Origin: an uncultured Candidatus Saccharimonas sp.
Lineage (GTDB): Bacteria; Patescibacteriota; Saccharimonadia; Saccharimonadales; AQU-01
DNA: 64,000 bases
Direction: 5' to 3'
NCBI GenBank assembly: GCA_943358095.1
Contig: CALRGT010000002.1
Span: 32,782 to 96,781, forward strand
Part shown: piece by piece, positions 2,616-59,102 of the stretch
Layout: each line of letters opens with the position of its first letter
Position numbering within the stretch: the stretch's first letter is position 1
The notes under the pieces: model-generated
What the model saw: only the letters and a program-made list of their open reading frames with translations
What the model was told of the DNA's origin: nothing
Databases searched by the model: none
Program-made: the position numbers and the translations under genes

Positions 2616-2810
2616 CTATACTCCCATTCTTGTCTTGATATTTCGTGCAAATTTACCGACGATCTGTTCAGTGCCAGCTAATTTACGCTTACGAGCTGCA
2701 CTCTTCTTCTGCAAGAAGTGACTGCGCATCGAATGACGGCGTAGTACTTTGCCGTTCTTGGTGATTTTGATGCGGTCTTTTGTGCCGCTGTGTGACTTAA
2801 GCTTTGGCAT
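2616..2810 (-). CDS. rpmI: 50S ribosomal protein L35
   Basis: The ORF MPKLKSHSGTKDRIKITKNGKVLRRHSMRSHFLQKKS is a typical L35. It abuts the rplT start. Confidence 0.95.
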   Translation of the reverse strand: MPKLKSHSGTKDRIKITKNGKVLRRHSMRSHFLQKKSAARKRKLAGTEQIVGKFARNIKTRMGV

Positions 2811-3351
2811 TTTTCTTCTCCTGGTTTAGGTTAGGTAAGGCTTTGCCTGTACCTCTTATTACGAATGATAATTGTCGTCCGGCGAGTGATGGTGATTGTT
2901 CAACCACTATGCTGTCCCCGAACATCTCGATCACTTTAGCCGCAAGTTTATAACCTAGTTCCTGGTGAGCCATTTCGCGGCCCTTGTACCAAACTCCGAT
3001 TTTAACCTTGTGACCAGCTTCCAAGAAGCTTGTAACCTTGCGCAATTTGACGGCTAAATCGTTTTCGCCAATCTTGAGACCGAAGCGCATTTGCTTTATC
3101 TCAACCACTTTGACGTTGCGTTTATTCTTCTGAAGCTGCTTTGTGCGCTGGTAGTTAAACTTGCCCCAATCGACAATTTTAGCTACTGGTGGGCTGGCGT
3201 CAGGTGAAATCTCCACCAAATCCAGTCCTGCTTCTTCTGCCAAACGTAAAGCTTCACCTTTCGACATGACGCCAAGTAATTTGCCGTCTTCGTCCACTAC
3301 ACGTAGTTGTGACGCCTGAATAAGATGGTTCAGACGAGTCGGTTTAGCGAT
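2797..3351 (-). CDS. infC: Translation initiation factor IF-3, probable non-AUG (AUC) start
   Basis: The ORF track starts at GTG 3297 (MDEDGKLLGV...). The frame stays open upstream and encodes IAKPTRLNHLIQASQLRVVDEDG, the conserved IF-3 N-terminal segment. ATC at 3351-3349 is preceded by AAGGAG with a 9-nt spacing. The IF-3 domains (KIVDWGKFNYQ..., VKIGVWYKGREMAH) are clear. Confidence 0.85.
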   Translation of the reverse strand: MAKPTRLNHLIQASQLRVVDEDGKLLGVMSKGEALRLAEEAGLDLVEISPDASPPVAKIVDWGKFNYQRTKQLQKNKRNVKVVEIKQMRFGLKIGENDLAVKLRKVTSFLEAGHKVKIGVWYKGREMAHQELGYKLAAKVIEMFGDSIVVEQSPSLAGRQLSFVIRGTGKALPNLNQEKKNAKA

Positions 3352-3387
3352 AAGTTCGTTCTCCTTGCTATCATTTAGGTTCGTCCC

Positions 3388-3416
3388 ATTATAACAGAGA
3401 GAACATCAGAGGTCAA
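3388..3416 (-). promoter_or_regulatory. Sigma-70-type promoter of the infC-rpmI-rplT operon
   Basis: The minus strand reads TTGACC, then a 17-nt spacer, then TATAAT. On the plus strand these are ggtcaa 3411-3416 and attata 3388-3393. Confidence 0.6.
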
Positions 3417-3495
3417 CCTCATCTTGTTACTTTTGATTAGCTTAAGACATTAAACCATTAGCAGTTTATTGTTCTTTTTTAAAAAGAATGAACTT

Positions 3496-3988
3496 TGCCA
3501 CTTTTGTCTCGGACAATAGCTTACCGTTACTTTTGTTTCGGCAAAAGTAACACAAAACCGAGGGGCGATGTCTACTTCTTGATACAGTCTCCAGTCAAGC
3601 CTGACAACTGCCTGCGGAACTAGGCCCGCTCTATTATTCTCCGGAGGGCGGGCCGTCAAACAGTCCTCGGCTGATAGTTGTCAGTTTGACGAGACATGTA
3701 TCAGGAAGCAGCCAAGCCCCATCTAAGACCATGGAATGATTGCTAAAGACAATCATAATTTTATATATTGCCCGCCTCCAGCGGGCATCCATGGTCTTTG
3801 GTGGGGCTTGGCGACTACCCGAAATAGATTCCGACAAGAGCACAACAACACTACCTGCCGAGGACTGTCTGAAGATGCGAATGCATCAAGTTCCGCAGGC
3901 TGTGTTGTGCTCCTTGTTCGGAAGCTATATCGAGTTGGCGACACCGCCCCTCGGTTTTGCGCCATCTTTTGCCGAGACAAAAGTGGCA
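3496..3988. repeat. 493-bp imperfect inverted repeat forming a rod-like multi-helix structure (candidate structured RNA; strand unknown)
   Basis: Long-range complementary blocks: 3496-3512/3972-3988 (17/17), 3553-3572/3940-3959 (19/20), 3610-3621/3889-3900 (12/12), 3660-3671/3857-3868 (12/12), 3711-3735/3788-3812 (23/25). Apical hairpins lie at 3736-3756 and 3770-3786. Only short mutually overlapping ORFs occur here. Confidence 0.85.
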
Positions 3989-4004
3989 TAAGAAACAATT
4001 TTTA

Positions 4005-5531
4005 TTAAAAGGTAACAGTACGTTTTCGGTATTGCAAAGCCTCCGCCATATGAGCCGAAGTAATAAACTCAGAAGATTCTAAATCTGCAATAGTCCGAGC
4101 CACCTTGATAGACTTCATATAATGCCGAGCCGAAATCTGCAGCCGCGAAGCCGCCTGGTTAAGCAGTTCCTGTGCCTCAGAAGAGAGTAGGCCGATCTTT
4201 TTAATATCTTGATTGGTCATATCGCTGTTAGTCTTGGTAGTAGTCTGGAATCGTTCAGTCTGCCGAGCTCGAGCTAAAACCACCCGATCGGCAATTTCGG
4301 CGCTGGATTCTTGGTCGTCACTGGTTAGTAACTTGGCGTGAACCACCTCATCAACATCAACATACATATCAATTCGATCGATAATTGGCCCAGATAATTT
4401 GCGTTGGTAATTAGTTATTTGGTGAGGCATGCAGCTACATTCATGGCTGGTGCCGTAGTATCCGCAGGGGCAGGGGTTGGCGGTTGCGACTAGGATAAAA
4501 TGTGCCGGAAAGATAAGGCTATCACGTGCTCGCGCCACACTTATTATTTTGTCTTCGAGCGGCTGTCGTAGAGCTTCAATCGTGGCTCTACCAAATTCTG
4601 GCAACTCATCCAAGAATAATATTCCTCTGTGGGCTAAACTAATTTCGCCAGGGCGAGGATATTGACCACCTCCAATTATAGATATATCGCTCGCACTATG
4701 ATGCGGCGAACGAAATGGTCTGCTGTGAATAATTACATCGTATTGTTTGCTAGCTAGGCTGTGAAGATGAGTTACTTCGAGCATTTCTTCTGGGCTGAGC
4801 GCAGGCAGGATGGTCGGCAAGGCTTTGGCTAGCATGCTTTTACCGGTGCCTGGCGGTCCGTTTAGCAGAACATTGTGTGAGCCGGCGGCAGCTATTTCGA
4901 GCGCACGCTTGGCTCTGTGTTGGCCCACAACATACTTAAAGTCGCTGCTATTACTATCTCCCGGCGACGATTTAGCACGTCCGGTGGTTCCGTTATTGGT
5001 GGCGATAGATTTTAAGCTGACAGTATTATTTAGGTGTAGATAAATATCACGGATATTCTGAACGGGGATAATGGTTATATTTGGCACTAGTAGAGCTTGG
5101 CGAGCGTTACCGTAGGGAATATAAAATATATCAAAGCCCAGCTCACGCCCGGCCAGTAATTTGCCGATAATGCCTCGGACTGGGCGAACGCTACCGTTAA
5201 GTGCGAGCTCGCCAATCATTAAAGTATTGTCGCCAAGTGCTTGGCTGGTCTGGCTGCCGGCGATTAGGATTGCTGTAGCTATAGCTAGATCAAAACTCGT
5301 GCTGTCTTTTGGAATATCTGCAGGAGCTAGATTAACAGTAATTCGCTTCTTTGGTAATTTAAGTTCAGCATTAGTAAATGCGCCGCGCAACCTCTCCTTG
5401 GCTTCATCGACAGCCTTATTAGCCAGTCCGACGATGATAATGCTTGGTAGGCCGTTAGATAAGTGGCATTCCACATCTATTACTACTCCAGTTGAACCCG
5501 ATTCAATAACGCTTTGTACGGTCGCACTCAT
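4005..5531 (-). CDS. comM: Mg-chelatase-like ATPase, YifB/ComM family
   Basis: The 508-aa ORF has an N-terminal Lon-protease-like fold region, Walker A LLNGPPGTGKSMLAK, Walker B ILFLDELPEF and the C-terminal ChlI-like region (PCPCGYYG...). This is the typical YifB/ComM architecture. Confidence 0.85.
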   Translation of the reverse strand: MSATVQSVIESGSTGVVIDVECHLSNGLPSIIIVGLANKAVDEAKERLRGAFTNAELKLPKKRITVNLAPADIPKDSTSFDLAIATAILIAGSQTSQALGDNTLMIGELALNGSVRPVRGIIGKLLAGRELGFDIFYIPYGNARQALLVPNITIIPVQNIRDIYLHLNNTVSLKSIATNNGTTGRAKSSPGDSNSSDFKYVVGQHRAKRALEIAAAGSHNVLLNGPPGTGKSMLAKALPTILPALSPEEMLEVTHLHSLASKQYDVIIHSRPFRSPHHSASDISIIGGGQYPRPGEISLAHRGILFLDELPEFGRATIEALRQPLEDKIISVARARDSLIFPAHFILVATANPCPCGYYGTSHECSCMPHQITNYQRKLSGPIIDRIDMYVDVDEVVHAKLLTSDDQESSAEIADRVVLARARQTERFQTTTKTNSDMTNQDIKKIGLLSSEAQELLNQAASRLQISARHYMKSIKVARTIADLESSEFITSAHMAEALQYRKRTVTF

Positions 5532-5631: not shown

Positions 5632-5662
5632 AAAAACCCGCCTATTTGTGGCGGGGTTTTCT
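5632..5662. terminator. Intrinsic-terminator-like hairpin (bidirectional) with no CDS on either side
   Basis: CCCGCC (5637-5642) pairs with GGCGGG (5650-5655). An A-run precedes it and a T-run (GTTTTCTT) follows. Confidence 0.5.
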
Positions 5663-7118
5663 TGGGTGATGAGTTTTGGTGTGTGTTTGATTTTGTTATT
5701 AGAACTAATTGTTTTTATGGAACAACGGCTTGCGATAAGCCGTTGTTACTGAAGACGTTTTTGTTTTTGAGCACCTTTTTTATTCAGTGCTATTTATATC
5801 CTATACATTGTCTTTTTAGCTGTCAACATGTTTGTGGTTAAAATAGCAAATAAAGCTGTGCATAACTATATTAACAGGGGTGAGAATTGGCTAAAAATAT
5901 AGTCATAGTCATTAGGTTTTGGCGAACTATTCGGCACAGGCAGCAAAATTGACTATAAAGAGCTATTCTTAACGATCATCAATGATTTTTAATAATTATT
6001 GCGGCTGAAATAGCTAAATAGGTCACAAATTATTAATAGACTGTAAGGTTGGCGGGCGGGGGATTAGATCGTCTGTTTGCCAAAACATACTAAACAGTCG
6101 CTCCGGTATCTGTTAGAGCGATTTTAAGCCCTTATAGCGCGGGTTAATACGAATAATGACCCAGTTAATCGCTTGCGAGCAGATTATGAGTGTATTGCCT
6201 GAGATTATTGATATGAATGGTCTATATAGTCTAGCAAGCCAATACGTACGGCTGAGCTATGCAGCATGTGAGGCTTATTTATGCAGAACCTAAAGGCTAG
6301 ATTAGCAGCCAGAATAGTCCAGTTTAGGCCAAAAATTTACTTTATAAAGTGCCCATAATCCAGGTATAAAAATACGTAAATTCAAGCACTCAGAAGCCTT
6401 AAATTATACATAAATTGAGTGTTTATGTGGTCTAATACCAGGCATTAATCACCAAATAATGCGCTCTAAATCCAATTTCACGGCGTCTAAAACTAGCTGA
6501 AATAAATCTCATTGCTTGGGTCTGTGTTCAGGCTATGTTCGTATTCTGTGCATATATTTTGAGAATTACCGTTGTCATATTAATAACAGCTAGGATGCTA
6601 TATTTCATTTATTCAGAACACCCGCTTACACTGTATAGTTGTTATAATTACATTATAATCGTATTGACATAAGCGTAATAATTTAGTACTGTAGGTGAGG
6701 TAATTTACGAGAATATTACCAAAAGTAACTGCTCCAGTTACACCTCGCTCCGAGTGCTGAAAAGCATAAAGAGCGGTCAGTCAAAAAAGCCAAAGGACGG
6801 TAACTGCCATACATTTTATATTGGGCGGATTTACCGTCCGGCTTCCAAGATTTTATAACGCATCTCGTAGTACGAATTGTCCGCAAAAAGTAAAACAAAA
6901 AAAGTGAGAAAAATATGTCTACACATAAATCAAAACATCAAGATTTTATCAACGAACACACGATCACAAATAGACGATTTTAGTCCCAGAGTTTTTCGGG
7001 GTAGTTATTTTGTTCGTGGACGATTTTGATAGTTTGTGAGGACTGCAGGGATACGATTGCCTTATCGGGAGGAACGGCGGAAACATACAAGAACAGTAGA
7101 AAAGGGGAGGGTTTAGAG

Positions 7119-18309: not shown

Positions 18310-19870
<1,561 letters not shown>

Positions 19871-20032
19871 TAGGGAGTATACCAAGGCGAGTAGCTCAAT
19901 TGACTACTCGACCTATGGTCGATCTCGACAACTAGTTTCTTCAGGAAACTCACTAGTTGCCAATTGAGATAAAGTTTTCTGAACCGAACTATGACGTTTG
20001 ATTTGCACTATTCAGTTTTAAAAGGCCAATGG

Positions 20033-20056
20033 CCACCCCGAAAGGGGTGGTTTTTT
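20033..20056 (+). terminator. Intrinsic terminator directly after the 16S processing stem
   Basis: CCACCCC (20033-20039), GAAA loop, GGGGTGG (20044-20050), then TTTTTT (20051-20056). Confidence 0.65.
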
Positions 20057-20077
20057 GTAGCTAAGGCTGTTAACAGA

Positions 20078-20104
20078 TTGACGAAACAGGGGAAATGCTA
20101 TAGT
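20078..20104 (+). promoter_or_regulatory. Candidate promoter for the tRNA-Ile/tRNA-Ala unit
   Basis: TTGACG (20078-20083), then TATAGT (20099-20104). The spacer is only 15 nt, hence low confidence. Confidence 0.3.
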
Positions 20105-20124
20105 CTATAACGGTATTTGTAACA

Positions 20125-20176
20125 AAATACATTAACAATTAGTGAGTCACGATTGATGGGCGATTAGCTCAGCTGG
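20125..20176 (+). repeat. 52-bp direct repeat, copy 1 (leader plus first 19 nt of tRNA-Ile); copy 2 at 20249-20300
   Basis: The sequence aaatacattaacaattagtgagtcacgattgatgggcgattagctcagctgg occurs identically at 20125-20176 and 20249-20300. Copy 1 continues into non-tRNA sequence, leaving a truncated tRNA-Ile 5' fragment at 20158-20176. Confidence 0.9.
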
Positions 20177-20281
20177 CGCAGCTCGCTGCAAAATTAAGTA
20201 ATTGCGCGATTCGCGCTCTAGCGCTGAGCTACAAATTCAGTAAGCGGTAAATACATTAACAATTAGTGAGTCACGATTGAT

Positions 20282-20358
20282 GGGCGATTAGCTCAGCTGG
20301 TTAGAGCGCGTCACTGATAATGACGAGGTCGGAGGTTCGAGTCCCTCATCGCCCACCA
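20282..20358 (+). tRNA. tRNA-Ile (GAU), CCA encoded
   Basis: The acceptor stem pairs GGGCGAT with ATCGCCC. It has the D-arm AGCTCAGCTGGTTAGAGC, anticodon loop CTGATAA, T-arm GGAGGTTCGAGTCCCTC, and ends ACCA. Confidence 0.95.
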
Positions 20359-20411
20359 TTCGTGTCTCGCTAGAGACGACCAAAAGTTCGGTTAACAATC
20401 AAATTCATTAT

Positions 20412-20488
20412 GGGGACATAGCTCAGTTGGCTAGAGCACCGCCTTTGCAAGGCGGGGGTCCAGGGTTCGAGTCCCTGTGTCTCCACCA
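20412..20488 (+). tRNA. tRNA-Ala (UGC), CCA encoded
   Basis: The acceptor stem pairs GGGGACA with TGTCTCC and includes the G3:U70 pair. The anticodon loop is TTTGCAA, the T-arm is CAGGGTTCGAGTCCCTG, and it ends ACCA. Confidence 0.95.
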
Positions 20489-20497
20489 AAATAAGGG

Positions 20498-20525
20498 CCC
20501 GTCCGCAAGGACGGGTTTTTGTTTT
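20498..20525 (+). terminator. Intrinsic terminator after tRNA-Ala, inside the rRNA locus
   Basis: CCCGTCC (20498-20504), GCAA loop, GGACGGG (20509-20515), then TTTTTGTTTT. Confidence 0.7.
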
Positions 20526-20566
20526 GGTGTAATGTCTAGATTCGAACCCTGGACCGCGACAATTAC
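20526..20566 (-). other. Inverted, degenerate copy of the tRNA-Ala 3' half (tRNA-like minihelix ending ACCA)
   Basis: The minus strand reads gtaattgtcgcggtccagggttcgaatctagacattacacca. Its 14 nt ggtccagggttcga are identical to tRNA-Ala 20457-20470. The T-stem pairing is broken, so this is not a functional tRNA. Confidence 0.6.
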
Positions 20567-20638
20567 GTGTAGCCCGGCGATAAACTTAAAAATTATAGTA
20601 GAAAAAAATAAACGCAAAGAGTATCGTAGTATGTATCT

Positions 20639-20860
20639 ATGATAGAAAACTCACAAAGTCCAGGATATCTTGAACACGAAGCAGAAATGCAAGAAGCATT
20701 CGTAGAGTCATTAAATCGGGCTACCGGATCCATTGCCGGAGATTCATCAGCCAGACATTTACCGCATAAGCCATGGAACCAAGATCAGCCTTTAGTCGCC
20801 CCAAAAGCGCCCAATTCATCACCCCAAGACATTAAGTCAGACGAAAATCCTGTACTCTGA
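20639..20860 (+). CDS. Hypothetical 73-aa protein encoded between tRNA-Ala and 23S (uncertain)
   Basis: The ORF is MIENSQSPGYLEHEAEMQEAFVESLNRATG... with no recognisable family. Supporting evidence is TAGTAT (20627-20632) 6 nt upstream of the ATG, the same geometry as other putative leaderless genes here. Confidence 0.35.
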   Translation: MIENSQSPGYLEHEAEMQEAFVESLNRATGSIAGDSSARHLPHKPWNQDQPLVAPKAPNSSPQDIKSDENPVL

Positions 20861-20928
20861 GCCCCAGATGCGAAAAAGTCAGATTTCCAGAGAAGTTAAA
20901 CCGTAGCAAGTTTTACACCAGTATAGTG

Positions 20929-20957
20929 TTGACTACCTCTGTTATTGATGGTAGACT
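20929..20957 (+). promoter_or_regulatory. Candidate separate promoter for 23S-5S
   Basis: TTGACT (20929-20934), a 17-nt spacer, then TAGACT (20952-20957), about 290 nt upstream of the 23S 5' end. Confidence 0.45.
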
Positions 20958-21843
20958 TGTTTAGCTACTTGAGTTTAGGCACGAGGCAGGGAAAAAAGCA
21001 GTGAAAGCTTCCAGCGTAAACTCAAGCATCCGAGATCATTTCAGTCTAATGTATGGGTGTGGTGAGAGTTTTGTAACTTAACAATTTAACCGACAAAATA
21101 AGTTTTTTAGAATCGTTTATGAATTCGTGATTGGCACGAAGGAGTAGACGAACATTAATGACAAACGGCTATTGGTTAATACCAATAACTAGTCAATTGC
21201 ACGAACAGCGATGATCGAGGCTTCGGCCAAAGTCATTGCTAACGTAAAAAGTTACATAAGCGCACACAAGGAATGCCTTGACGTAAGATACCGATGAAGG
21301 ACGTAGTAGACTGCGAAAAGCTTCGGGGAGCTGTCTAACAAGCTTTGAACCGAAGATATCCGAATGGGGAAACCTATGGCGAGTAATGTCGTCATGCACT
21401 TGTCTGAATATATAGGACGAGAGAGCGGTAACCAGGGGAACTGAAACATCTTAGTACCCTGAGGAAGAGAAAGTAAACAACGATTCCGGTAGTAGTGGCG
21501 AGCGAACCCGGAAGAGCCCAAACCTTTTAAGTTTCCGTCTAGCAATAGATGGATAAGTTGGTAGACGAATATTTAAAAGGGGTTGTGACACACAAACAAT
21601 CCAAGCAGACTGTTTGAGCAATCGAACAATCTGTTTGGCCCGCATGACCTACCATTGTCATGCATAAGGTAAAAAATTTGCGAAGCGAGCAGAAGGATCT
21701 GGAAAGTTCCGCCAAAGACGGTGAAAGCCCGGTATGCCAAGTTTCGCAAACCTTATTATTTGTGTTGTCGAGTAGGACGGGGCACGTGAAATCCTGTCTG
21801 AATCTGGGTCGACCACGACCCAAGGCTAAATATATCTTACGAT

Positions 21844-21874
<31 letters not shown>

Positions 21875-23099
21875 TAAAAGAACCCCGGAAGGGGAGTGAA
21901 ATAGATCCTGAAATTGTGTGCGTACAAGGAGTAGGAGCCGGCTTGTCCGGTGACTGCGTGCTTTTTGTAGAACGATCCAGCGAGTTAATTGTCATGGCAA
22001 GCTTAAGCCATTTGGCGGAGGCGCAGTGAAAGCGAGGCTTAATTAGGCCGACTTCAGTCATGATGATTAGACCCGAAACCGAGTGACCTAACCATGGGCA
22101 GGATGAAGCGCAGGTAAAACTGCGTGGAGGTCCGAACCGTAGCGAATTGCAACACGCCCGGATGACCTGTGGTTAGTGGTGAAATGCTAATCGAACTCGG
22201 AGATAGCTGGTTCTCCTCGAAATAGCTTTAGGGCTAGCGTCGTACGGTAACAGATAGGGGTAGAGCTCTGTTTCGGACTGGGGGTCGTAAGACTACCCAC
22301 CCTTGACAAACTACGAATACTATCTGCGGAACTACGGCAGTCAGAACGGCGGGGCTAAGCTCGCCGCTCGAAAGGGAAACAGCCCAGATCGCCAGCTAAG
22401 GTCCCTAAATATACACTCAGTGGGAAACGAGGTGAGATTTCTCGAACAACTAGGATGTTGGCTTAGAAGCAGCCATTCATTTAAAGAGTGCGTAACAGCT
22501 CACTAGTCAAGAGATCTTGCGCGGAAAATGTAACGGGGCTCAAGTGTATTACCGAAGCTGCGAACTCGATCATACCTTCGGGTATGGTTGATTGGTAGAG
22601 GAGCGTTGATATTGCATCGAAGTCGAACTGCGAGGTTCGGTGGAGCGGTATCAAGTGAGAATGCTGGAATGAGTAACCATAAGGCAGGTGAGAATCCTGC
22701 CCGCCGAAAGAGCAAGGTTTCCTGGGCCACGATAATCGTCCCAGGGTTAGTCGGTCCTAAGTCGAGGCGAGTAGCGTAGACGATGGACAACGGGTTAATA
22801 TTCCCGTACTAGCTTTGTATTGTTTGGAAGTGCGCGGCATATTAGTAGGAGCGGGTTCATGGTTATACCCGTCTAAGCCACAGAAATAGTGGTTAACGAG
22901 AGATCTTAATTGATTGATTCCTGTGAAAGCGCTGACCAGAAAAGCTTCCAAGCTTATGTACATAGTTATCCGTACCGCAAACCGACACAGGTGCTCAGGT
23001 CGAGTAGACCAAAGGCGTACGAGTGATTCTTCGTTAAGGAACTCGGCAATACAGCGACCGTAACTTCGGGATAAGGTCCGCCCCGTCACAGTGTTTATC

Positions 23100-23257
23100 A
23101 CTGTGACTTGTAACGCCAGTTTTCTTTTTAAAACGGAAACAACAGAAACCGAGATTAGTTTTTAACTTCTGATCTTTGGCCTGTATAAACGAGCAATTTT
23201 TGAGAATTAGAAAGAAAGCTGACCTCTATAAGCACGTAACGTGGTAGTTACTGTGAC
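23100..23257 (+). mobile_element. 150-nt insertion in a 23S hairpin, bounded by an 8-bp direct repeat ACTGTGAC (23100-23107 and 23250-23257)
   Basis: Deleting 23108-23257 joins gccccgtcacagtg-tttat-cactgtgac to ggggc. That gives a perfect 14-bp stem with a 5-nt loop. The insert has no ORF and no similarity to the CATTT family. Confidence 0.5.
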
Positions 23258-23709
23258 GGGGCCGCAGCTAAAGAACCCATGCAACTGTTTACCAAAAACA
23301 CAGGTCTGTGCTAACACGAAAGTGGATGTATACGGGCTGACGCCTGCCCGGTGCTGGAAGGTTAAGGGGATGGCTTTACGGTCTGAACTGAAGCCCCAGT
23401 GAACGGCGGCGGTAACTATAACCGTCCTAAGGTAGCGAAATTCCTTGTCAGGTAAGTTCTGACCTGCACGAATGGCGTAATGATATGGGTACTGTCTCAA
23501 CGAAGAGCTCGGTGAAAGTGCATTGACGGTAAAGATGCCGTCTGTCCGCAGCAGGACGAAAAGACCCCGTGCAGCTTTACTACAGCTTGACATTGAACCC
23601 GGTTGTAACATGTGTAGGATAGGTGGGAGACTTTGAGATCTCGACGCTAGTCGAGAAGGAGTCATCAGTGAAATACCACCCTTGTTATAATCTTGTTCTC
23701 ACGGGAACC

Positions 23710-23887
23710 TCAATTTGCGAAGCAAATTGAATTTAGCATTTAACATTGATGCATTGACGCATTAATTTAACATTGACCATTTTTCATTGAAGCTCCAGGG
23801 CTACAATGACCAAATGTCACATGGATAAATTAATGACAAAATGATAAATGGTAAATGGTAAATTCTGACATTTGATTCTCAAATTCA
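23710..23887 (+). repeat. CATTT/CAATG-rich hairpin repeat element, copy E2, inserted in the apical loop of a 23S domain-V-proximal hairpin
   Basis: The 178-nt insert is closed by GGGAACC (23703-23709) pairing with GGTTCCC (23888-23894). The left arm atttagcatttaacattgatgcattgacgcattaatttaacattgaccatttttcattgaagct is about 85 percent identical to intergenic copy E3. E. coli has only a short loop at the equivalent site. Confidence 0.8.
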
Positions 23888-24173
23888 GGTTCCCGGACCG
23901 TGTCTGGTGGGTAGTTTAACTGGGGCGGTTGCCTCCTAAAGAGTAGCGGAGGCGTTCAAAGGTTGGCTAGGTTCGGATGGAAATCGAATCGATAGTGCAT
24001 ACGCATAAGCCAGCTTGACTGTGAGACCTACAAGTCAAACAGGCACGAAAGTGGGAGTAAGTTTTCCGCTGTCCATACATTCGTATAAGAGAGTGGTATC
24101 GGCAGCGCTATCGGATAAAAGTTACGCCGGGGATAACAGGCTTATCGCGCCCAATAGTTCACATAGACGGCGC

Positions 24174-24209
<36 letters not shown>

Positions 24210-24260
24210 AGGGGGAGCACCTTCCAAGGGTCCGGCTGTTCGCCGGTTAAAGTGGTACGT

Positions 24261-24294
<34 letters not shown>

Positions 24295-24789
24295 TTATAT
24301 CCGCTGTGGACGATAGGAAATTTGAGAGAATTTGCCCCTAGTACGAGAGGACCGGGGTGAACGCACCGCTGGTGTACCAGTTGTTCTACCAAGAGCACCG
24401 CTGGGTAGCTAAGTGCGGACCAGATAAGCGCTGAAAGCATATTAAGCGCGAAACTGACCTCAAGATTAGATTTCCCTATGAGGGCCGTGAAAGACGATCA
24501 CGTTGATAGGCGCAAGGTGGAAGTACAGTAATGTATGGAGCCGAAGCGTACTAATCGCCCCATCGACTTTTTACGACTATGAGAGATGATCCGTGCCATT
24601 TATGGGACGGGGACTCTCTCGTAGGTAGTGCGTTGACTAGTTATTGGTGAGAATCACCACATAGACAACGTTTGTCATATTTCTTCTGAACTTATTTGTT
24701 GGCACCATACCATTGGCATCGAACCAAGGTTTCAAAGGCCCACCGCCAGATCGTATATATCTGCGCAAAGTCGCCTTTCAAGCCTTTAA

Positions 24790-24903
24790 TCGGTGCCCAT
24801 GGCGCGAGGGAGACACCTGTTCCCATTCCGAACACAGCAGTTAAGCCTCGCAGCGGTTACAATACTTGGGCCATCAAGCCCTGGGAAAATAGCACGGTGC
24901 CGA
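24790..24903 (+). rRNA. rrf: 5S ribosomal RNA
   Basis: The sequence tcggtgcccatggcgcgagggagacacctgttcccattccgaacacagcagttaagcctcgcag...gggaaaatagcacggtgccga has a conserved 5S core and a terminal helix. Confidence 0.93.
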
Positions 24904-24914
24904 ATTATAGAACA

Positions 24915-52070: not shown

Positions 52071-55000
52071 ATGCAAGATTCAACTAACACACAGCCAAAT
52101 CTCACCCCTGTTGTTACCCCTAATACGGGCTCTATTGAAGGCATAACTCCGGTACAAAATATACAAAATTCACCAGTTTATCCTGAACAAAAAATAGATA
52201 ACACCGTTGTTTCTTCGCTGACTTCAGTTGCTAGTCCTGATGTGCAGGTTCAAGAAGCCTTTATGGATCAGAGTTCGCTTGAGAATTCCGGTCTACTTGA
52301 CGCTGTAGACACTGGATCACTGATCAACCAAGATAATTACGCTACACCGAAGGCAAAGCGTCGTTCTGCCAAAACTCCTTTCATCATCACTGGTCTAACT
52401 CTTGTGGTAGCTCTCATCATTGCTGGCCTTGGTAGCTATTTTGCCAAGCGCACTACTGTCGCCGATAAGAGTGTCTCACAGCAGGTTGTTGAGCAGTCAG
52501 TCGACTCCGCACTCCTACGTGTTGACCCTCTAAGCCTGCTTTCTCCTGTTGGTGTCATAGGTCAACAACTTCTTGTGAATGGTAATGCCGACTTCACAGG
52601 TAACATAACCGCCAATAACTTCTTTGGTAACGGTTCTGGTATTACCGACCTAAAGGCCGCTAACTGTGATGATTGTGTCATGCTTCAGCCAACCACTCCT
52701 GGCTTGGCTCAGGTTGGAGGCATCAATGTTGCGGGTAATGGTTTGTTCGGCAAACTAGGGGTGGGCACTCAGAATCCTGCCTATACCGTTGATGTTTTGG
52801 GTGACATAAACGCCAGCTCAAGTCTTAAAGTTAACGGTGTTACTGTTTGTACTGTTGCTGGTTGTGGAGCTACAAGTGGTCTAACCTCTGCTGTTACTCA
52901 ACTAGACGGACTTGTCGGCAATCTGCTAATAAGCAATACATCTGGTATTGGCACAACGATTACCATCAACGACGCCTCCACAACAGGTAAGGGAATAGCT
53001 CAGTTTAGCGCTACTAACTTCTTAGTTTCTGGCGGTACAGTCAACACTATCCAAGACATTACAAACGCTTCTATCCCAACTTTTGGTGGAATTATCTTGA
53101 ACGGTAACGTCACTCTCGGTACTACTGGTACTGTCTTTAGCAATAACCTGAGTCAGACTAGTGCTGGCAATGCTGTTGTTGTTAACGCCGCTGCCGATCA
53201 AATCACTTTCCAGGCTAATGGCCGAACTTTCCAGTTCCCGAGCACTGGGGTAGCTAATCAAACCATCTGTACTACTGGTATTACCTGTGTAGCAGGTGGT
53301 GGTCAGGCGATTTTGCTGGCACCCGGCAGCGCCCAAACAGACACCTCTGTAGATGTCTCCATATTCGTAAACGATACTGGGGGCGGTAATCTTTTACAAC
53401 TCCAGACTGCTGGAGCCGATAAGTTTGTCGTCGCTAACAACGGCGACACTTCTATAAATGCCATCCTTAAGGTTAATACCATTACACCTACAGCATCCTT
53501 TACAGTTGGCTCTAGTACTCAGACTATTACTCTTCAGGGTGATGCCAGCTCGACCTTTAATGCAACTGGCGGTGGTTTTACTTCAAGTCTTGGTTTTACT
53601 TCGCCAACCGCTAATAGGACAATTACCATCCCTAACGCTAGTGGTACAGTTGCGGTCAGCGCCAGTGGTAATATTAGCCTTAGCGCCAGCGGTAATGTAA
53701 CTTTCACCGGCCTATTACCGATCGGGAGCGGCGGTACGAACTCTTCAACTGCCGGAGGTGCTCTCACCAATCTAGGTGCTGCCGCTAGCGGTGCTAACTC
53801 CGACATCACTAGCACATCAGCATTAGCTACCGCTACTGGACTCAACACCATCACTCCGACTGGTGCTTTGACTGTTGGTGCTGTATCTCAGTCCATAACT
53901 CTACAGGGTTCTACTGCCACATTGACCAGTAATGGTGCAGGCAATGACATTACGCTAACTTCGGCCGACGCCATTATTTTGTCAGCTGTCGGTAATGTTA
54001 CATTCTCTGGATTTAATTGTACGACCTTTTCAAACGGCGGTACGCTGACGACTGACGCCAGCGGCAATGTAACTTGTTCTAACGATGATGGTGGAGCTAC
54101 TCCAACTCTGCAAACTACCTATAACGCTTCTACTAATCCAGAACTAACCGTCGACGCTACTAGAGGTGCTTTGACTGTTCGAGACAACTCTACTCCAATC
54201 GCCGCTAATCTGTTAGAAGTTCAAAATAACAGTGGTAGCACGACTTACTTTAGGGTTGACGCTAACGGCATTGAAACTACAGGCACGACCACCAGTACCG
54301 GCAATATTAACTCTAGTGGCGGCGTAATCCAGACTAATAGCGTGACTCGTATCGATAACTCCGGCAACTTAACTAACATTGGTACAATTAACAGCCAGAC
54401 TATCTCATCATCAGCCAACTTTACTGGCACAGTATCTGTCGCTACTAGCCTAACATCACCACTGTTAAGCAGTGTCGGAGCGCTAACTATTACGCCAGGA
54501 GGTGCTTTCGTAGTTGGCGCTACCAGCCAAAGCCTATCGCTTCAGGGTAACGGTTCTACTACTCTTAGCTCCACTAGCGGTGGCTTTACTAACACCCTAG
54601 GATTTACTACACCAGCTGGCTCCAACAAGTCCATCACCATCCCTAACGCTAGTGGTACAGTTGCGGTCAGCGCCAGTGGTAATATTAGTCTCAGCGTTAG
54701 CGGAGATATTACCTTCACCGGCCTATTACCGATCGCTAACGGCGGCACGAACTCTTCTACTGCCGGAGGTGCTCTCACCAATCTAGGTGCTGCTGCCAGC
54801 GGTGCAAACTCTGACATAATTAGCACATCAGCATTAGCCACCGCTACTGGACTCAACACCATCACTCCGACTGGTGCTTTGACTGTTGGCGCTACTAGCC
54901 AGGCCTTTACATTGCAGGGTAATGCTAGCTCGATAATTACTGCCACAGGTGGTGGGTTTTCTACAACAGTTGGCTTTTCTGGAACGCCTACCGGTGGAGT

Positions 55001-58000
55001 AGCTTACAATTTTGATCGTTCTGCTCTAGCTGGAACTTATACAATCTGTACAACAGTAGGTAACTGTGTGGGTGCTGGCGGTGGTGTTACTACTGCCGGA
55101 GGAACGGCAGGAAAACTAGCTAAGTTCACTGCAGGCAGCGTCATAGCTGATTCAATCATTAGTGAGTCTGGCGTTATTGTTACTGTTGCTGGTGAAGCAG
55201 TTCTTCAAGGCTCCGGCGGTTTAACTCTAGGTCAAGCATCAACAGCCACAGGTAAAATAGTCTTTAACAACATCGGTAACGCAAACACCATCACTCTTCA
55301 AAGTGGCAATCCTGGCTCAAATGTGACCTTAACTCTTCCAATCACTGCTGGAGCTAACGGTGATTGTATAACCAGTAACGGTTCAGGAGTTCTAAGCTTT
55401 ACTGCCTGTACCGGCGGACCAGGTGGCGGTGTTACTAGCGTAGACGGCCTAATAGGAGTTTTGACTATTGCTAATTCGAGTGGTTCTCTAAGTACGATAA
55501 CTATCGATGACGCCACAACCTCAAGCAAGGGTATAGCCCAGTTCAACAGCACAAACTTCACAGCCAGTAGCGGTACCATCAACACTATCCAGAACATCGA
55601 CTCAACAGCTACTCCTAGCTTTGCTGGTCTAAGCGTTACGACTGCAACAGGGCTAACATTAGGTACTGGAACGGCTGCAGGTAAATTAGTTGTACGTGAC
55701 GGTATCTCGGCATTTGGTAGCACCTTCCAGACAACCACTCTTACTGGCAATCAAGTGATTACCATTCCTAACGCTGGTGGTACCTTAGCAGTCAGCGCCA
55801 GCGGTAACATTAGTCTCAGCGCCAGCGGAGATATTACCTTCACAGGCCTATTACCGATCGCTAATGGCGGTACGAACTCTTCTACTGCCGGAGGTGCACT
55901 CACCAATCTAGGTGCTGCCGCAAGCGGTGCTAACTCCGACATCACTAGCCTTAGTGGCCTTACCACTGCGCTATCTGTTGCTCAAGGTGGCACAGCATTG
56001 GCCACAATTCCAACAAATGGTCAGTTATTGATAGGTAACGGCACTAACTACACACTGGCTGGACTCAGCGGTACCGGTATAACTGTTACTAACGGAGCCG
56101 GCAGTATTGGCTTGGCAACTATTTATGGCTCAGGCTCGAACACGGCCGCACAAGGCAACGTAACCTTTACTTGCCCTAGTGGAACAGGCAACTTATCTGG
56201 TACCGGTAACGCCATAACTATCGGTAGCGGTGGAACATGTAACAGCTTAACTGTAGTAAATAATCCAACATTCTCTGGACTTGTAACCGGCCAAGCTGGA
56301 CTAGTTGTAACAAACGGTGGATCGCTATCTACACAAAAGGGAACTGACTATGCCACGACTGGCGTGACGAGCGACGTAAACTTGGGTGCTGCTAGTCTTT
56401 ATCGACTCACTGGTATAAGTGCTCAAACCATCACCGGCTTTAGTGGTGGCGTCGATGGCCGTATCCTGACATTAATAAACGCTGGTTCAGCCACTGCCGT
56501 ATTGAGCAACTTAACCACCTCAGCTGCTGGTAATCAGATTAGTACTGGTTCTGGTAGTGATGTAAATCTACCAATTGGTAGCTCTATTTCGTTGATTTAT
56601 GATTCGGCCGCTAGTCTATGGCGCGTCAATGGTAGTCCTGCAGGCAGTGGCTTGTCTGGGGTTACTAACGACACTAACGTTACTGGAGTGTTAGCTTCTA
56701 ATGTACTAACACTTGGCTGGACAGGCACATTAGCGGTTGGGCGTGGCGGCCTAGGCGTCGGCAGCCTTACTAGTAACGGAATTCTCTACGGTAATGGTAG
56801 TAGCGCTGTTCAGGCCACTGCATCGGCTGCAAACAGTATTTTAATAACCGACGGTAGTAGTGTGCCAGCGCTTAGTCAGACATTACCTACTTTAGTGCAA
56901 GGTAATATAACTTCAACGGGCGCACTAAACTCAGGATCAATTACCTCTGGCTTCGGAGTTATAGATAACGGCTCCGACACAATTACTACAACCGGTACAA
57001 TTGGTACCGCCGGCACCACTACCTTCACCGGTAATACCGCAACATTCTCTGGTGGTGTTATAGCACCAAGTCTAGAGCGAGCCACGGCTGGCACCTTAAC
57101 TATAGGCAGCACATCCAACACTACTGCCATAAGTGAGGGTCGTACTGGAATTACAACGACCAATGCTGGTGCGCTTACAGTTTCGGAAGCCTTTAGTGCG
57201 AACCTCGGCGCAACAGTAACAGGCGGAGCAGTTACGCTGAACTCAACAGGCTCGTCTAACTTCAACACAGACATTAATACTGGCACATCTACAGGAGCTA
57301 TAAACATTGGTAACTCATTATCTGGAGCAATTAGTCTTCAGAGTAGTTCTTATGTGTCGGTGGGTGCTAGTGACACAACAGGTACGCTGTTGATACTTGA
57401 TACCAAGACAGACGCATCTGATCCTAGCGGTTCAAACGGCGGTATGTACTACAACTCTAGCCTAGGCAAGTTCCGTTGTTATGAGAACAGTGTTTGGAAA
57501 GACTGCGGCACATCAACTCCAACTAGCTTGCAAGGAGCATACACTCAGTCAGCCGGCGCCAGCCCATCCATAACCCTGACCAATGCCTTCGGAGGAATTA
57601 ATATCGTTGACGGCACAACTCCAGTAGCCGGTAACCTATTCTCCATCAAGAATAACGCCGCTACCGCCACTTACTTCGGCATAACCTCTACAGGTTTATT
57701 GATCCAAGATGCTTCTGCTACTAACGCTCTAGCGTTTGATTCGTCGACTAAAACCTTAAAGGTCTACGGTACGAGTGGCGCTGGATATGCTGGTGTTAGC
57801 TATACTGATGCTACCAGTACGGCTATTTTTGCCGCTTCTTCTGGCGGCGTATCACAACTTGGTAACGGTAACGGTAATGTTACTATTTCGCTTGGTGGTG
57901 CAACTGACGCGCTTAACTTCGACAAGACATATACACCTATTGCCGCCTACAGTTCGTCTGATTTCAATGTTATCCGCAACCTGACTGGTACATCCTTCGC

Positions 58001-59102
58001 CTTAACTGGTAATGTATTCAAAATAGAAGATCAAAGCACGATAACGAGCGGTTCAAGTGCTTCTAACTTGTTATATATTAACCAAGCCAATACCTCTGCT
58101 ACTGGCAACTTAATATTAGCTCAAACCGGTGGCTCAACTACGAAATTTGCCGTCAGCACTGCTGGCACGGTCACTGTCGCAGCTGGTCAATCCTATACTG
58201 GCACTGGCGCATTAACAGTTTCTTCAGGAGCTGCAACAGCATTGACTATCACTGGCAATGCCGCATCAACTTGGTCAACATCTACCGGCAATCTAACTAT
58301 TCAAGCTGGTGGCGCTAGCAAAGTGATATTGAAGCCAGGCACAGACTCTACTTCAGCTCTTGAGGTGCAAAATGCCGCTGGAACAGCTATGTTTACTGTT
58401 GACAGCACTAATAATAGGTTAAGCGTAGGTGTCAGTGACACAACTGGTACATTACTTGTTATCGACACCGACAATGACGCAACCTATAGCGGCGGCGCGG
58501 CGGCTAATACTGCCACAGAAGTTGACGGAGGTATGTTCTACAGTACGGTTAACCATAACTTCATGTGTGGCGTAGCTGGTTCTTGGCAGACATGTACCGG
58601 CCTGCTGTACTCGAATACTGCCATCGGCGCTACTATAAGTACCTGTACGACAGCATGTTCTCCGCTCGGCACGGCACCAATTCCAGCTAACTATTGTAAG
58701 CCAGGCAGAGTAATCCACTTAGTAGCTAGAGGAACATGGACTACCACTACAACCACACTTGCCTTGGCCGTTTACTACGGCTCTAGTACTGTAAAAGCTA
58801 GTGATACTTTGCTTGGAGTTTCGCTACCTGCGACAGCATCTTTGTCCGCAGCTACTTGGGCTTGGCAGCTAGACACGACCTTAATTTGTTTTAGTACCAC
58901 TACGATTATGGCTCAAAGTCAGGTCGTAATGCAGGTTTCGGCAACTGCTTCAACAGCCAACACTACTTATAGTACTGCCGCCACTGCCGCAACTACTGTA
59001 ACGACATCGTCGGCCAACAACTTGTATGTCTTCCCAGCATTTGGTGTATCTGCAGCTGGTAACTCCGCCATTGCAACACAGTTGATAGTAACCGGTAACT
59101 AG
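52071..59102 (+). CDS. Giant (2343 aa) N-terminally membrane-anchored fibrous surface protein with phage-tail-fibre-like repeats
   Basis: The single uninterrupted ORF has a TM at about aa 103-125 (PFIITGLTLVVALIIAGLGSYFA). The module IPNASGTVAVSASGNISLSASG..TFTGLLPI..GGTNSSTAGGALTNLGAAASGANSDI occurs three times. It also has KGIAQF..TNF motifs, the GKLGVGTQNPAYTVDVLGD motif, and very high Gly/Thr/Ser/Ala/Asn content. Antisense ORFs in the track are artefacts of repeat composition. Confidence 0.85.
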   Translation: MQDSTNTQPNLTPVVTPNTGSIEGITPVQNIQNSPVYPEQKIDNTVVSSLTSVASPDVQVQEAFMDQSSLENSGLLDAVDTGSLINQDNYATPKAKRRSAKTPFIITGLTLVVALIIAGLGSYFAKRTTVADKSVSQQVVEQSVDSALLRVDPLSLLSPVGVIGQQLLVNGNADFTGNITANNFFGNGSGITDLKAANCDDCVMLQPTTPGLAQVGGINVAGNGLFGKLGVGTQNPAYTVDVLGDINASSSLKVNGVTVCTVAGCGATSGLTSAVTQLDGLVGNLLISNTSGIGTTITINDASTTGKGIAQFSATNFLVSGGTVNTIQDITNASIPTFGGIILNGNVTLGTTGTVFSNNLSQTSAGNAVVVNAAADQITFQANGRTFQFPSTGVANQTICTTGITCVAGGGQAILLAPGSAQTDTSVDVSIFVNDTGGGNLLQLQTAGADKFVVANNGDTSINAILKVNTITPTASFTVGSSTQTITLQGDASSTFNATGGGFTSSLGFTSPTANRTITIPNASGTVAVSASGNISLSASGNVTFTGLLPIGSGGTNSSTAGGALTNLGAAASGANSDITSTSALATATGLNTITPTGALTVGAVSQSITLQGSTATLTSNGAGNDITLTSADAIILSAVGNVTFSGFNCTTFSNGGTLTTDASGNVTCSNDDGGATPTLQTTYNASTNPELTVDATRGALTVRDNSTPIAANLLEVQNNSGSTTYFRVDANGIETTGTTTSTGNINSSGGVIQTNSVTRIDNSGNLTNIGTINSQTISSSANFTGTVSVATSLTSPLLSSVGALTITPGGAFVVGATSQSLSLQGNGSTTLSSTSGGFTNTLGFTTPAGSNKSITIPNASGTVAVSASGNISLSVSGDITFTGLLPIANGGTNSSTAGGALTNLGAAASGANSDIISTSALATATGLNTITPTGALTVGATSQAFTLQGNASSIITATGGGFSTTVGFSGTPTGGVAYNFDRSALAGTYTICTTVGNCVGAGGGVTTAGGTAGKLAKFTAGSVIADSIISESGVIVTVAGEAVLQGSGGLTLGQASTATGKIVFNNIGNANTITLQSGNPGSNVTLTLPITAGANGDCITSNGSGVLSFTACTGGPGGGVTSVDGLIGVLTIANSSGSLSTITIDDATTSSKGIAQFNSTNFTASSGTINTIQNIDSTATPSFAGLSVTTATGLTLGTGTAAGKLVVRDGISAFGSTFQTTTLTGNQVITIPNAGGTLAVSASGNISLSASGDITFTGLLPIANGGTNSSTAGGALTNLGAAASGANSDITSLSGLTTALSVAQGGTALATIPTNGQLLIGNGTNYTLAGLSGTGITVTNGAGSIGLATIYGSGSNTAAQGNVTFTCPSGTGNLSGTGNAITIGSGGTCNSLTVVNNPTFSGLVTGQAGLVVTNGGSLSTQKGTDYATTGVTSDVNLGAASLYRLTGISAQTITGFSGGVDGRILTLINAGSATAVLSNLTTSAAGNQISTGSGSDVNLPIGSSISLIYDSAASLWRVNGSPAGSGLSGVTNDTNVTGVLASNVLTLGWTGTLAVGRGGLGVGSLTSNGILYGNGSSAVQATASAANSILITDGSSVPALSQTLPTLVQGNITSTGALNSGSITSGFGVIDNGSDTITTTGTIGTAGTTTFTGNTATFSGGVIAPSLERATAGTLTIGSTSNTTAISEGRTGITTTNAGALTVSEAFSANLGATVTGGAVTLNSTGSSNFNTDINTGTSTGAINIGNSLSGAISLQSSSYVSVGASDTTGTLLILDTKTDASDPSGSNGGMYYNSSLGKFRCYENSVWKDCGTSTPTSLQGAYTQSAGASPSITLTNAFGGINIVDGTTPVAGNLFSIKNNAATATYFGITSTGLLIQDASATNALAFDSSTKTLKVYGTSGAGYAGVSYTDATSTAIFAASSGGVSQLGNGNGNVTISLGGATDALNFDKTYTPIAAYSSSDFNVIRNLTGTSFALTGNVFKIEDQSTITSGSSASNLLYINQANTSATGNLILAQTGGSTTKFAVSTAGTVTVAAGQSYTGTGALTVSSGAATALTITGNAASTWSTSTGNLTIQAGGASKVILKPGTDSTSALEVQNAAGTAMFTVDSTNNRLSVGVSDTTGTLLVIDTDNDATYSGGAAANTATEVDGGMFYSTVNHNFMCGVAGSWQTCTGLLYSNTAIGATISTCTTACSPLGTAPIPANYCKPGRVIHLVARGTWTTTTTTLALAVYYGSSTVKASDTLLGVSLPATASLSAATWAWQLDTTLICFSTTTIMAQSQVVMQVSATASTANTTYSTAATAATTVTTSSANNLYVFPAFGVSAAGNSAIATQLIVTGN
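53625..53878 (+). repeat. 254-bp intragenic direct repeat (copy A); copy B at 54636-54889 (about 90 percent identical), partial copy C about 55763-55950
   Basis: Direct sequence comparison shows identical runs such as accatccctaacgctagtggtacagttgcggtcagcgccagtggtaatattag and cgctactggactcaacaccatcactccgactggtgctttgactgttgg. The offset is exactly 1011 bp, which is in frame. Confidence 0.9.

Follow-up and report, generated by a model that had tools for sequence, protein, structure and literature searches.

BOX of Streptococcus pneumoniae and ERIC (IRU) of the enterobacteria are modular, structured intergenic repeats with no known transposase. Their stable hairpin modules are dispersed, show compensatory changes in the stems and are sometimes more conserved than the neighbouring genes. 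Genomes of the candidate phyla radiation (CPR), Saccharibacteria included, are small and usually described as poor in mobile DNA. A stretch of 64,000 nt from an uncultured Candidatus Saccharimonas sp. (contig CALRGT010000002.1, positions 32,782 to 96,781; hereafter the window) contains an imperfect palindrome of 493 nt between comM and the infC promoter. This element, the subject of the present analysis, occupies positions 3496-3988 of the window. An earlier note had read it as one rod-like fold, either a large structured RNA or a cruciform-forming element. Positions 3497-3987 probably represent two diverged copies, joined head to head without cargo, of a palindromic repeat that is dispersed in intergenic DNA of the Saccharibacteria. 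The best reading of the repeat is a family not previously described, low in copy number, recombinogenic and akin in kind to miniature inverted-repeat transposable elements (MITEs), BOX and ERIC. On size, end structure and lack of target duplication it fits none of the described families. A literature search found no paper on repeat families of such kind in CPR or Saccharibacteria genomes.

Like BOX and ERIC, the Saccharibacteria units are non-coding, intergenic and dispersed, and consist of hairpin modules with compensatory stems. They share no sequence similarity with BOX or ERIC, are larger (215-235 nt) and are dominated by one near-perfect hairpin of ~160 nt. An apparently low copy number, the inverted pairs around accessory genes and the CPR host are further differences. 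MITEs and MITE-flanked cassettes, e.g. the Correia elements of Neisseria and the pairs flanking integrons and resistance genes, are likewise small and non-coding. The dimer and the cargo-bearing pairs of units have inverted ends, as MITEs do (17/17 in the window; 156 nt with 90% identity in L006, the L-numbers denoting relatives' loci fetched for comparison). As in MITE-flanked cassettes, pairs of units bracket genes, here those for a C39-like peptidase, a heliorhodopsin and an APH(6) kinase, and as with MITEs the units are tied to rearrangements and a naturally competent host. Unlike MITEs, they show no target-site duplication by eye, and no matching autonomous insertion sequence (IS) or transposase occurs among the window's open reading frames (ORFs) of at least 110 aa. 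A single unit, moreover, ends in two different hairpins and has no terminal inverted repeats of its own.

REP/BIME/REPIN elements, which RAYT (Y1 HUH) transposases mobilise, and IS200/IS605-derived palindromic elements share with the units the alternation of palindromic modules and the larger hairpins. Target duplication is lacking in both, and both conserve hairpin structure better than sequence. A single-strand intermediate would fit the moderate bias of wobble pairs in the units towards one strand. REPs are 20-40 nt long and carry a conserved GTAG head, whereas the units have two differing end hairpins. Membership in REP/BIME/REPIN was rejected on the unit length of 215-235 nt and on copy number, one locus in 64 kb against tens to hundreds.

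A unit comprises, in order, a GC hairpin, the linker ATCCATGG, a long hairpin, a second linker and a terminal hairpin (TH). The long hairpin of ~150-165 nt is almost perfectly Watson-Crick paired and is closed by GGGGC/GCCCC. The linker between long hairpin and TH reads CTCGGTTTTG (also given as CGCCCCTCGGTTTTG). The TH follows the consensus YYACTTTTG-N6-CAAAAGTRR with arms of 9-10 bp and a 6-nt loop, ending GGC|A. Near the tip of the long hairpin lies a conserved asymmetric internal loop, CCGAGGAC-TGTTTGA ... AGTTCC (CCGAGGA-TGTTTGA ... AGTTCC). A-type and B-type units are about 65-70% alike. The window element and its flanks are organized as follows (strand given where assigned).

3497-3512: orphan half TH, GCCACTTTTGTCTCGG, identical with the first outer-stem copy of the earlier note; pairs 17/17 with 3972-3988.
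3522-3758, minus strand: unit A (covariance model R1, 241 bits, E ~1e-61; also an nhmmer match), in minus-strand order from GC hairpin to TH.
3526-3551: TH of unit A, an inverted repeat, GTTACTTTTG-TTTCGG-CAAAAGTAAC.
3553-3567: left outer inverted repeat, CAAAACCGAGGGGCG, boundary of the large inversion.
3558-3720: long hairpin A, 163 nt, with an apical hairpin at 3623-3654 (fold z = -9.6; covariation).
3711-3735: left inner inverted repeat, GCCAAGCCCCATCTAAGACCATGGA, boundary of the small central inversion.
3736-3769: AT-rich centre, with a small hairpin ATGATTG-ctaaaga-CAATCAT at 3736-3756.
3770-3786: GC hairpin, GCCCGC-ctcca-GCGGGC, inner end of unit B, terminator-like.
3766-3991, plus strand: unit B (model R1, 229.6 bits, E ~1e-58), in plus-strand order from GC hairpin to TH.
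3787-3812: right inner inverted repeat, ATCCATGGTCTTTGGTGGGGCTTGGC.
3803-3954: long hairpin B, 152 nt, with an apical hairpin at 3874-3887 (fold z ~ -5 to -6).
3945-3959: right outer inverted repeat, CGCCCCTCGGTTTTG.
3961-3987: TH of unit B, GCCATCTTTTG-CCGAGA-CAAAAGTGGC; the element terminates at GGC|A.
4005-5531, minus strand: comM (Mg-chelatase-like ATPase), flanking gene, with 17 nt between its stop codon and the element.
3388-3416, minus strand: infC promoter, TTGACC-17-TATAAT with a TG extension, near-consensus and outside the element.

Unit A of the window has no GC hairpin of its own; one GC hairpin is common to A and B. Read on the minus strand, long hairpin A carries the apex-proximal conserved motif AGTTCCGCAGGC ... 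GCCGAGGACTGTTTGA. Across copies, the TH stem covaries between GCC/GGC and TTA/TAA. The two copies of the outer strand had been taken earlier for a potential alternative-pairing switch. Both exist: 3500-3512 and 3529-3541 form a direct repeat (92% identity), and the second copy pairs over 19 nt (3529-3547 with 3966-3984, 95%). The simpler account is that the strand occurs twice because the orphan half TH (3497-3512) adjoins the complete TH of unit A (3526-3551). In L088, both element ends consist of a half-site like 3497-3512 and a full terminal hairpin.

The long-range complementary blocks and both local hairpins described in the earlier note are all present. The outer stem joins 3496-3512 with 3972-3988 in an exact 17/17 match. 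Further blocks pair 3607-3621 with 3889-3903 (93%) and 3656-3678 with 3850-3872 (87%), and both arms can be extended to stretches of 56-59 nt with 71% complementarity. The hairpin GGCCCGC...GCGGGCC lies at 3623-3654 as described, while GATGC-GAAT-GCATC had been placed one base off and occupies 3874-3887. The minimum free energy of the 493 nt is -265.7 kcal/mol on the plus strand (z = -20.8) and -272.9 kcal/mol on the minus strand (z = -18.8); in neither case was any of 100 dinucleotide shuffles per strand as good. The minimum free energy structure is a cloverleaf, composed of the outer stem, hairpin A of ~160 nt, a central hairpin and hairpin B of ~150 nt, rather than the single rod of the earlier note, although the blocks on which that rod was built are real. 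Each sub-hairpin of the cloverleaf is significant on its own against shuffles.

All four half-arms of the element are mutually homologous: a segment of ~75 nt occurs four times in alternating orientation. Long-range pairing follows automatically from this homology, which also makes the rod about as stable as the local hairpins, so that energy does not separate the two. The extreme folding scores result from the alternation of repeat copies and not from one RNA, which is a caution for RNA discovery.

A single large rod-like structured non-coding RNA of 493 nt, comparable to the big orphan RNAs, had been the first proposal for the locus. The folding z-scores on both strands and the real long-range blocks speak for it, the latter being a consequence of half-arm homology. 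No Rfam family matches, the element is absent from the corresponding spacer of most relatives and is conserved at the locus within a narrow clade only. Its halves are separated by a gene in sibling strains, occur singly in one relative and are copied at other loci. Strains with identical flanks differ in the order and strand of its parts, so that a fixed transcript sequence of 493 nt is not conserved. With GOLLD, ROOL, OLE, HEARO and raiA the element shares size and helix content only; it differs from them in the missing covariance-model match, in the variable order and orientation of its parts and in the solo halves elsewhere. A single RNA is accordingly extremely improbable, and the cruciform or DNA-palindrome alternative, also raised in the earlier note, comes close to what the evidence supports.

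Searches for known RNA families returned none for the element. Rfam 15, run on the whole window at gathering score, gave no match in 3300-4200. At E<=10, the best matches in 3300-4200 were plant miRNA precursor models with 25-27 bits, against the 93-100 needed. Nor did Rfam at gathering score match the unit copies in L003, L006, L029, L031, L040 and L094. ARAGORN detected no tmRNA at the element. Known families, including GOLLD, ROOL, OLE, HEARO, 6S, SRP, tmRNA and the L20 leader, were rejected in the absence of a covariance-model match. Resemblances to retrons, diversity-generating retroelements, SRP and 6S were rejected on inspection because their defining features are lacking. The element reads on the strand opposite to its neighbours comM and infC-rpmI-rplT. 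ORFs inside it are short and without coding signal, as had been noted before, and have no Pfam match; gene callers nevertheless place a spurious 68-aa ORF there.

Copies of the unit were sought with a profile (nhmmer) and covariance model R1 across ~0.76 Mb of Saccharibacteria DNA. Within the 64-kb window, neither search revealed a copy besides this locus. Small, non-coding copies proved dispersed: they occupy the comM-infC locus, three positions in L094 and two in L006, and L014 has a copy as well. Weaker members or look-alikes were returned from L029, L031, L040 and L025. L094, from the same sample as L087, was retrieved with the spurious 68-aa ORF as protein query. It holds three copies within 2.3 kb, all in direct orientation. 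An A-type copy, 92% identical to that of the window and ~92% to all comM-locus copies, has a type I restriction-modification operon on one side and a heliorhodopsin gene on the other. Directly after the heliorhodopsin stop codon comes a B-type copy. The third copy, also B-type, is a truncated unit ending exactly at the hairpin apex. The operon in L094 (1-4899) is complete (hsdR, hsdS, Ymh-like, hsdM) and marks a region of variable or defence type. Heliorhodopsin genes of other lineages are organized in tight operons without units, so the unit-gene-unit heliorhodopsin cassette was not seen elsewhere. In L006, two diverged copies form the 156-nt inverted repeat around the gene of the APH(6)-type kinase and a second ORF.

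Outside this material no relative of the element was encountered. Pattern scans of viral contigs in IMG/VR gave chance matches only, in GC-rich phage DNA. A JGI metagenome scan with a 21-mer of unit A had an unrelated coding gene as its sole match. Neither blastn against plasmids and phages nor a six-frame concatenated protein query, aimed at spurious ORFs over other copies, gave any match.

A further interpretation regards the units as ends or recombination sites in a hairpin-based system of gene cassettes, so far undescribed, in Saccharibacteria. A strand-specific module of three hairpins, its conserved internal loop serving for protein recognition and its TH shaped like the core site of a recombinase, would then allow single accessory genes, such as those for heliorhodopsin, the APH(6) kinase and the C39-like peptidase, to be taken up, inverted and transferred between naturally competent CPR genomes. 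The cargo-less dimer of the window would represent an empty landing pad. This interpretation is tentative and rather unlikely. Integron attC sites were rejected as a counterpart: inspection of alignment A3 showed no agreement of the unit ends with the R''/L''-L'/R' boxes (RYYYAAC ... GTTRRRY). The window, L002 and L006 have inverted pairs, though in L094 all three copies are direct, and no integrase was found.

The site itself was surveyed in 74 Saccharibacteria loci with conserved comM -> infC order. The spacer has a median length of 77.5 nt, and the infC promoter lies almost directly after the comM stop codon. Spacers longer than 200 nt, present in 18 of the 74 loci, contain unrelated small genes, which marks the site as an insertion hot spot. 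Comparable inverted repeats were not found in the other long spacers. By sequence similarity, the palindrome occurs at comM-infC only in the species of the window and in L003, whose comM shares 82% protein and 72% DNA identity with that of the window. The covariance model added a very diverged full-length unit directly after comM in L014. The repeat brackets accessory genes, marks a hot spot beside an essential operon and is rearranged within one species. It offers a concrete handle on gene gain and shuffling in reduced, naturally competent genomes.

Long spacers (0.2-1.6 kb) occur e.g. in L006, L015, L019, L020, L024, L025, L031, L033, L058 and L074. That of L024 holds a 169-aa isochorismatase-like ORF, others HAD-like or unassigned ORFs. 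The spacer of L028 (5530-6081) is 551 nt long, free of ORFs and has 32% GC. It contains several AT-rich inverted repeats of 26-30 nt (5542-5571/5910-5939; 5713-5742/5942-5971) and may represent a different palindromic element.

Rearrangement within the species was followed in sibling strains chosen by exactly identical initiation factor 3 (IF3), onto each of which five element segments were mapped. Three arrangements relative to comM were distinguished. L001, L084, L086 and L090 carry A+ centre- B+; L082, L085 and L089 carry B- centre+ A-; the window and L091 carry B- centre- A-. Strains of all three are 100% identical in IF3 and 96-97% identical in comM DNA. The first arrangement becomes the second if the whole A-centre-B block is inverted once between its two CAAAACCGAGGGGCG repeats, and the second becomes the third through a single inversion of the centre between CCATGGA repeats. 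The segment inverted in L082, L085 and L089 consists of the AT-rich centre and the GC hairpin. Short inverted repeats at the hairpin bases, those of the large hairpins and that of the central one, coincide with the breakpoints. The type of TH (GCC/GGC or TTA/TAA) stays with its position while A and B swap, and the outer breakpoint is therefore placed in CAAAACCGAGGGGCG. Each arrangement was found in two to four independent assemblies. As the inverted repeats are far shorter than assembly k-mers, the arrangements are real variants. They track strain clusters 3-4% apart in comM DNA, which indicates occasional, not rapid, flipping.

Small hairpin-loop inversions in non-coding chloroplast DNA and bacterial invertons likewise leave close relatives with opposite orientations of a segment enclosed by short inverted repeats, which form a hairpin stem; here the inversions are nested. 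A programmed phase-variable DNA switch of the inverton or shufflon type, flipped by a site-specific recombinase encoded elsewhere, would alter transcription into infC-rpmI-rplT or antisense to comM. Consistent with such a switch, short inverted repeats bound both the centre and the A-centre-B block, and each of the two is found either way round between flanks that are identical. With its inverted arms of 9-10 bp and 6-nt spacer, the TH is also built like the core site of a tyrosine recombinase. The scaffold of L083 joins incompatible modules (B- cen- ... A+ cen+ B'+) across a 10-N gap inside the element (2409-2418); this suggests more than one arrangement or strain in that sample and hints at a mixed population. 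Each arrangement is fixed per strain cluster over several samples, however, so that flips look rare. Invertons differ from the locus in rapid switching, of which no evidence was found here, in a dedicated invertase, for which no counterpart was found in the window (ORFs of at least 110 aa), and in a conserved internal promoter. The promoter-like site inside the element is weak and not conserved in spacing, and infC has its own near-consensus promoter outside. The breakpoints, finally, do not lie at the TH sites. A programmed switch is therefore very unlikely.

Cargo between the units was detected in L002 and L087, where a Peptidase_C39_2-like gene of 189-211 aa separates them at the position of the window's centre. 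This gene is flanked by two inverted copies of the GC hairpin. L003 carries only the comM-proximal half, unit A, followed by AT-rich DNA with a small membrane-like ORF. In L088 (2262-2340), comM is replaced as left neighbour by an S41 (CtpB-like) peptidase gene preceded by a CHAP-domain gene, and the long 'outL' type end is present at both element ends. Its flank may stem from a rearrangement between copies or else from assembly across a repeat copy next to the peptidase gene. On the comM strand, the direct repeat CAAAAGTAAC(A/G) occurs at 3426-3438 and 3526-3538, 100 nt apart. L002 (6655-6690) and L087 lack exactly the DNA between these copies, which brings the infC promoter directly up to the right end of their element. 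The difference is a deletion or insertion between short direct repeats.

Structural conservation of the single unit is deep. Pairing in the local hairpins, compared between A and B, amounts to 97.7% with 13 compensatory pairs; shuffles reached 87% and slid controls ~40%. In 22 family members aligned to the covariance model, the paired fraction of cells is 94.7%, compared with 78% for shuffles and ~40% for slid controls. Compensatory change affects 43 of 62 unit base pairs in this alignment, which leans towards structure because it was fitted to the model. The claim of the earlier note that pairing was kept while the rest diverged accordingly holds for the local hairpins. Since the asymmetric loop near the tip is conserved even in L014, hairpin formation is under constraint and probably protein recognition as well. 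Alignment A3 of the units contains 554 Watson-Crick, 25 G-T and 6 A-C pairs, the wider family 1102, 51 and 19, respectively.

The main rival reading takes the single unit, and not all 493 nt, for a functional structured RNA element. The unit would be transcribed either together with the gene upstream, as its 3' tail, or from an AT-rich region of its own ahead of the unit. Its long double-stranded rod and conserved loop would serve as an RNase III or protein-binding site, a stabiliser or a terminator, and the DNA repeats would be copies of an RNA gene or motif. The 43 covarying pairs occur in copies with little common sequence, and CCGAGGA-TGTTTGA ... AGTTCC beside the tip persists in L014; both would suit an RNA. 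G-T pairs exceed A-C pairs on one strand, and the alifold energy is better there too. Several copies follow directly after a stop codon on the strand of the gene (L001-L003 and L014 after comM, the second copy of L094 after heliorhodopsin). The comM-proximal GC hairpin of L002 (GCCCGCTGGAGGCGGGC TATTTTTT) scores as an intrinsic terminator, whereas none is called for that of the window. Orientation to genes varies: the window is opposite to L001-L003, and the first and third copies of L094 lie in divergent regions. Over 90% of pairs are Watson-Crick with few wobbles, and single-sequence folds show no consistent strand preference. In L082 the spacing of the central promoter-like match is broken, and its 9/12 positions do not exceed what shuffles give. 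Truncation and inversion of copies are tolerated. On balance, a function of the unit as RNA is doubtful.

Unit A is ~94% identical between L003 and the window, and its TH 98%. The flanks are less similar (72% in comM DNA, 83% in the infC operon); identity falls at the unit boundary, and the adjacent coding DNA shows no elevated identity beside the unit. From these sequence comparisons, a recent exchange between lineages would be favoured over unusually strong constraint, with the units providing the homologous or recognised segments.

In the preferred interpretation as a dispersed repeat, the units would function as DNA, forming a non-autonomous module for mobility or recombination, and would move or be exchanged in the shape of hairpins. 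They may provide portable homology that lets cassettes swap in a naturally competent host. Inverted copies would render the locus recombinogenic, leading to inversions, deletions between direct repeats and exchange of flanks. Hairpin-based transposition and site-specific recombination are possible routes of spread, as is homologous exchange following natural transformation. Read-through from comM would give a long double-stranded 3' tail, presumably a by-product and not the reason for the palindrome.

Several observations weigh against this interpretation. No transposase or recombinase was found among the ORFs of at least 110 aa in the window, nor beside any copy; the Pfam scan of these ORFs returned housekeeping genes, a TraG-like ATPase and unassigned proteins only, and thereby also ruled out a neighbouring invertase or transposase. 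Target-site duplications were not seen by eye at the copies in the window, L003, L006, L088 and L094. No pair of filled and empty sites occurs among the loci compared, and mobility is a deduction. Copy number looks low, with one locus in 64 kb and none in the JGI metagenome, IMG/VR, plasmids and phages. The differing left flank of L088 could be an assembly join across repeat copies, and strong constraint, rather than transfer, could account for the high identity of unit A in L003 and the window. On the strand reading from GC hairpin to TH, G-T exceeds A-C (29 vs 10 pair positions, 78 vs 36 cells), and alifold gives -70.5 against -59.8 for the opposite strand, structures being predicted on both. 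Deep structural conservation, that of the asymmetric internal loop included, and strand-biased G-T pairs would equally suit selection on a molecule in single-stranded form, for instance an RNA. The moderate excess of wobbles is taken as evidence for a single-stranded intermediate on one strand, either DNA or RNA, and is not evidence for a 493-nt RNA.

Side observations were made in the neighbourhood. The infC gene (window 2797-3420; L004-L026) has an apparent non-AUG start (ATC or ATA) ~8 nt after an AAGGAG Shine-Dalgarno sequence. Its promoter, cTTGACCyCTGtt...TGTTAyAAT with extended -10, is conserved across Saccharibacteria, usually ~5-30 nt from the comM stop codon. A non-coding segment of ~160 nt upstream of comM (window 5634-5662, 5721-5790) is up to 95% identical between the window and L003 and occurs also in L006 (3494-3657), L029 (3672-3827), L025, L031 and L040. 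Two hairpins within it, AAAAACCCGCC...GGCGGGGTTTT and GGAACAACGGCTT...AAGCCGTTGTTAC, have T runs behind them and resemble terminators; Rfam at E<=1 gave chance-level matches only.

GC skew is positive from 1 to ~52 kb and negative beyond, both within and after an ORF of 2343 aa (52071-59102). The change near 52 kb could be a strand-switch point or an effect of gene composition. A replication origin or terminus at the element is unlikely, as no skew switch occurs near 3.5-4 kb. The ORF at 1078-1788 encodes a pterin-4a-carbinolamine dehydratase domain fused to an RNase H / RVT_3-type domain. It adjoins the RNase P RNA (1833-2202), an arrangement kept in related strains. The rRNA operon (18310-24905) carries CPR-type insertions, among them one of ~92 nt near the 5' end of the 16S rRNA. 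The 23S match extends over 3331 nt against a model of 2925 positions, with insertions of ~36 and ~72 nt near the 5' end in the part of the alignment displayed.

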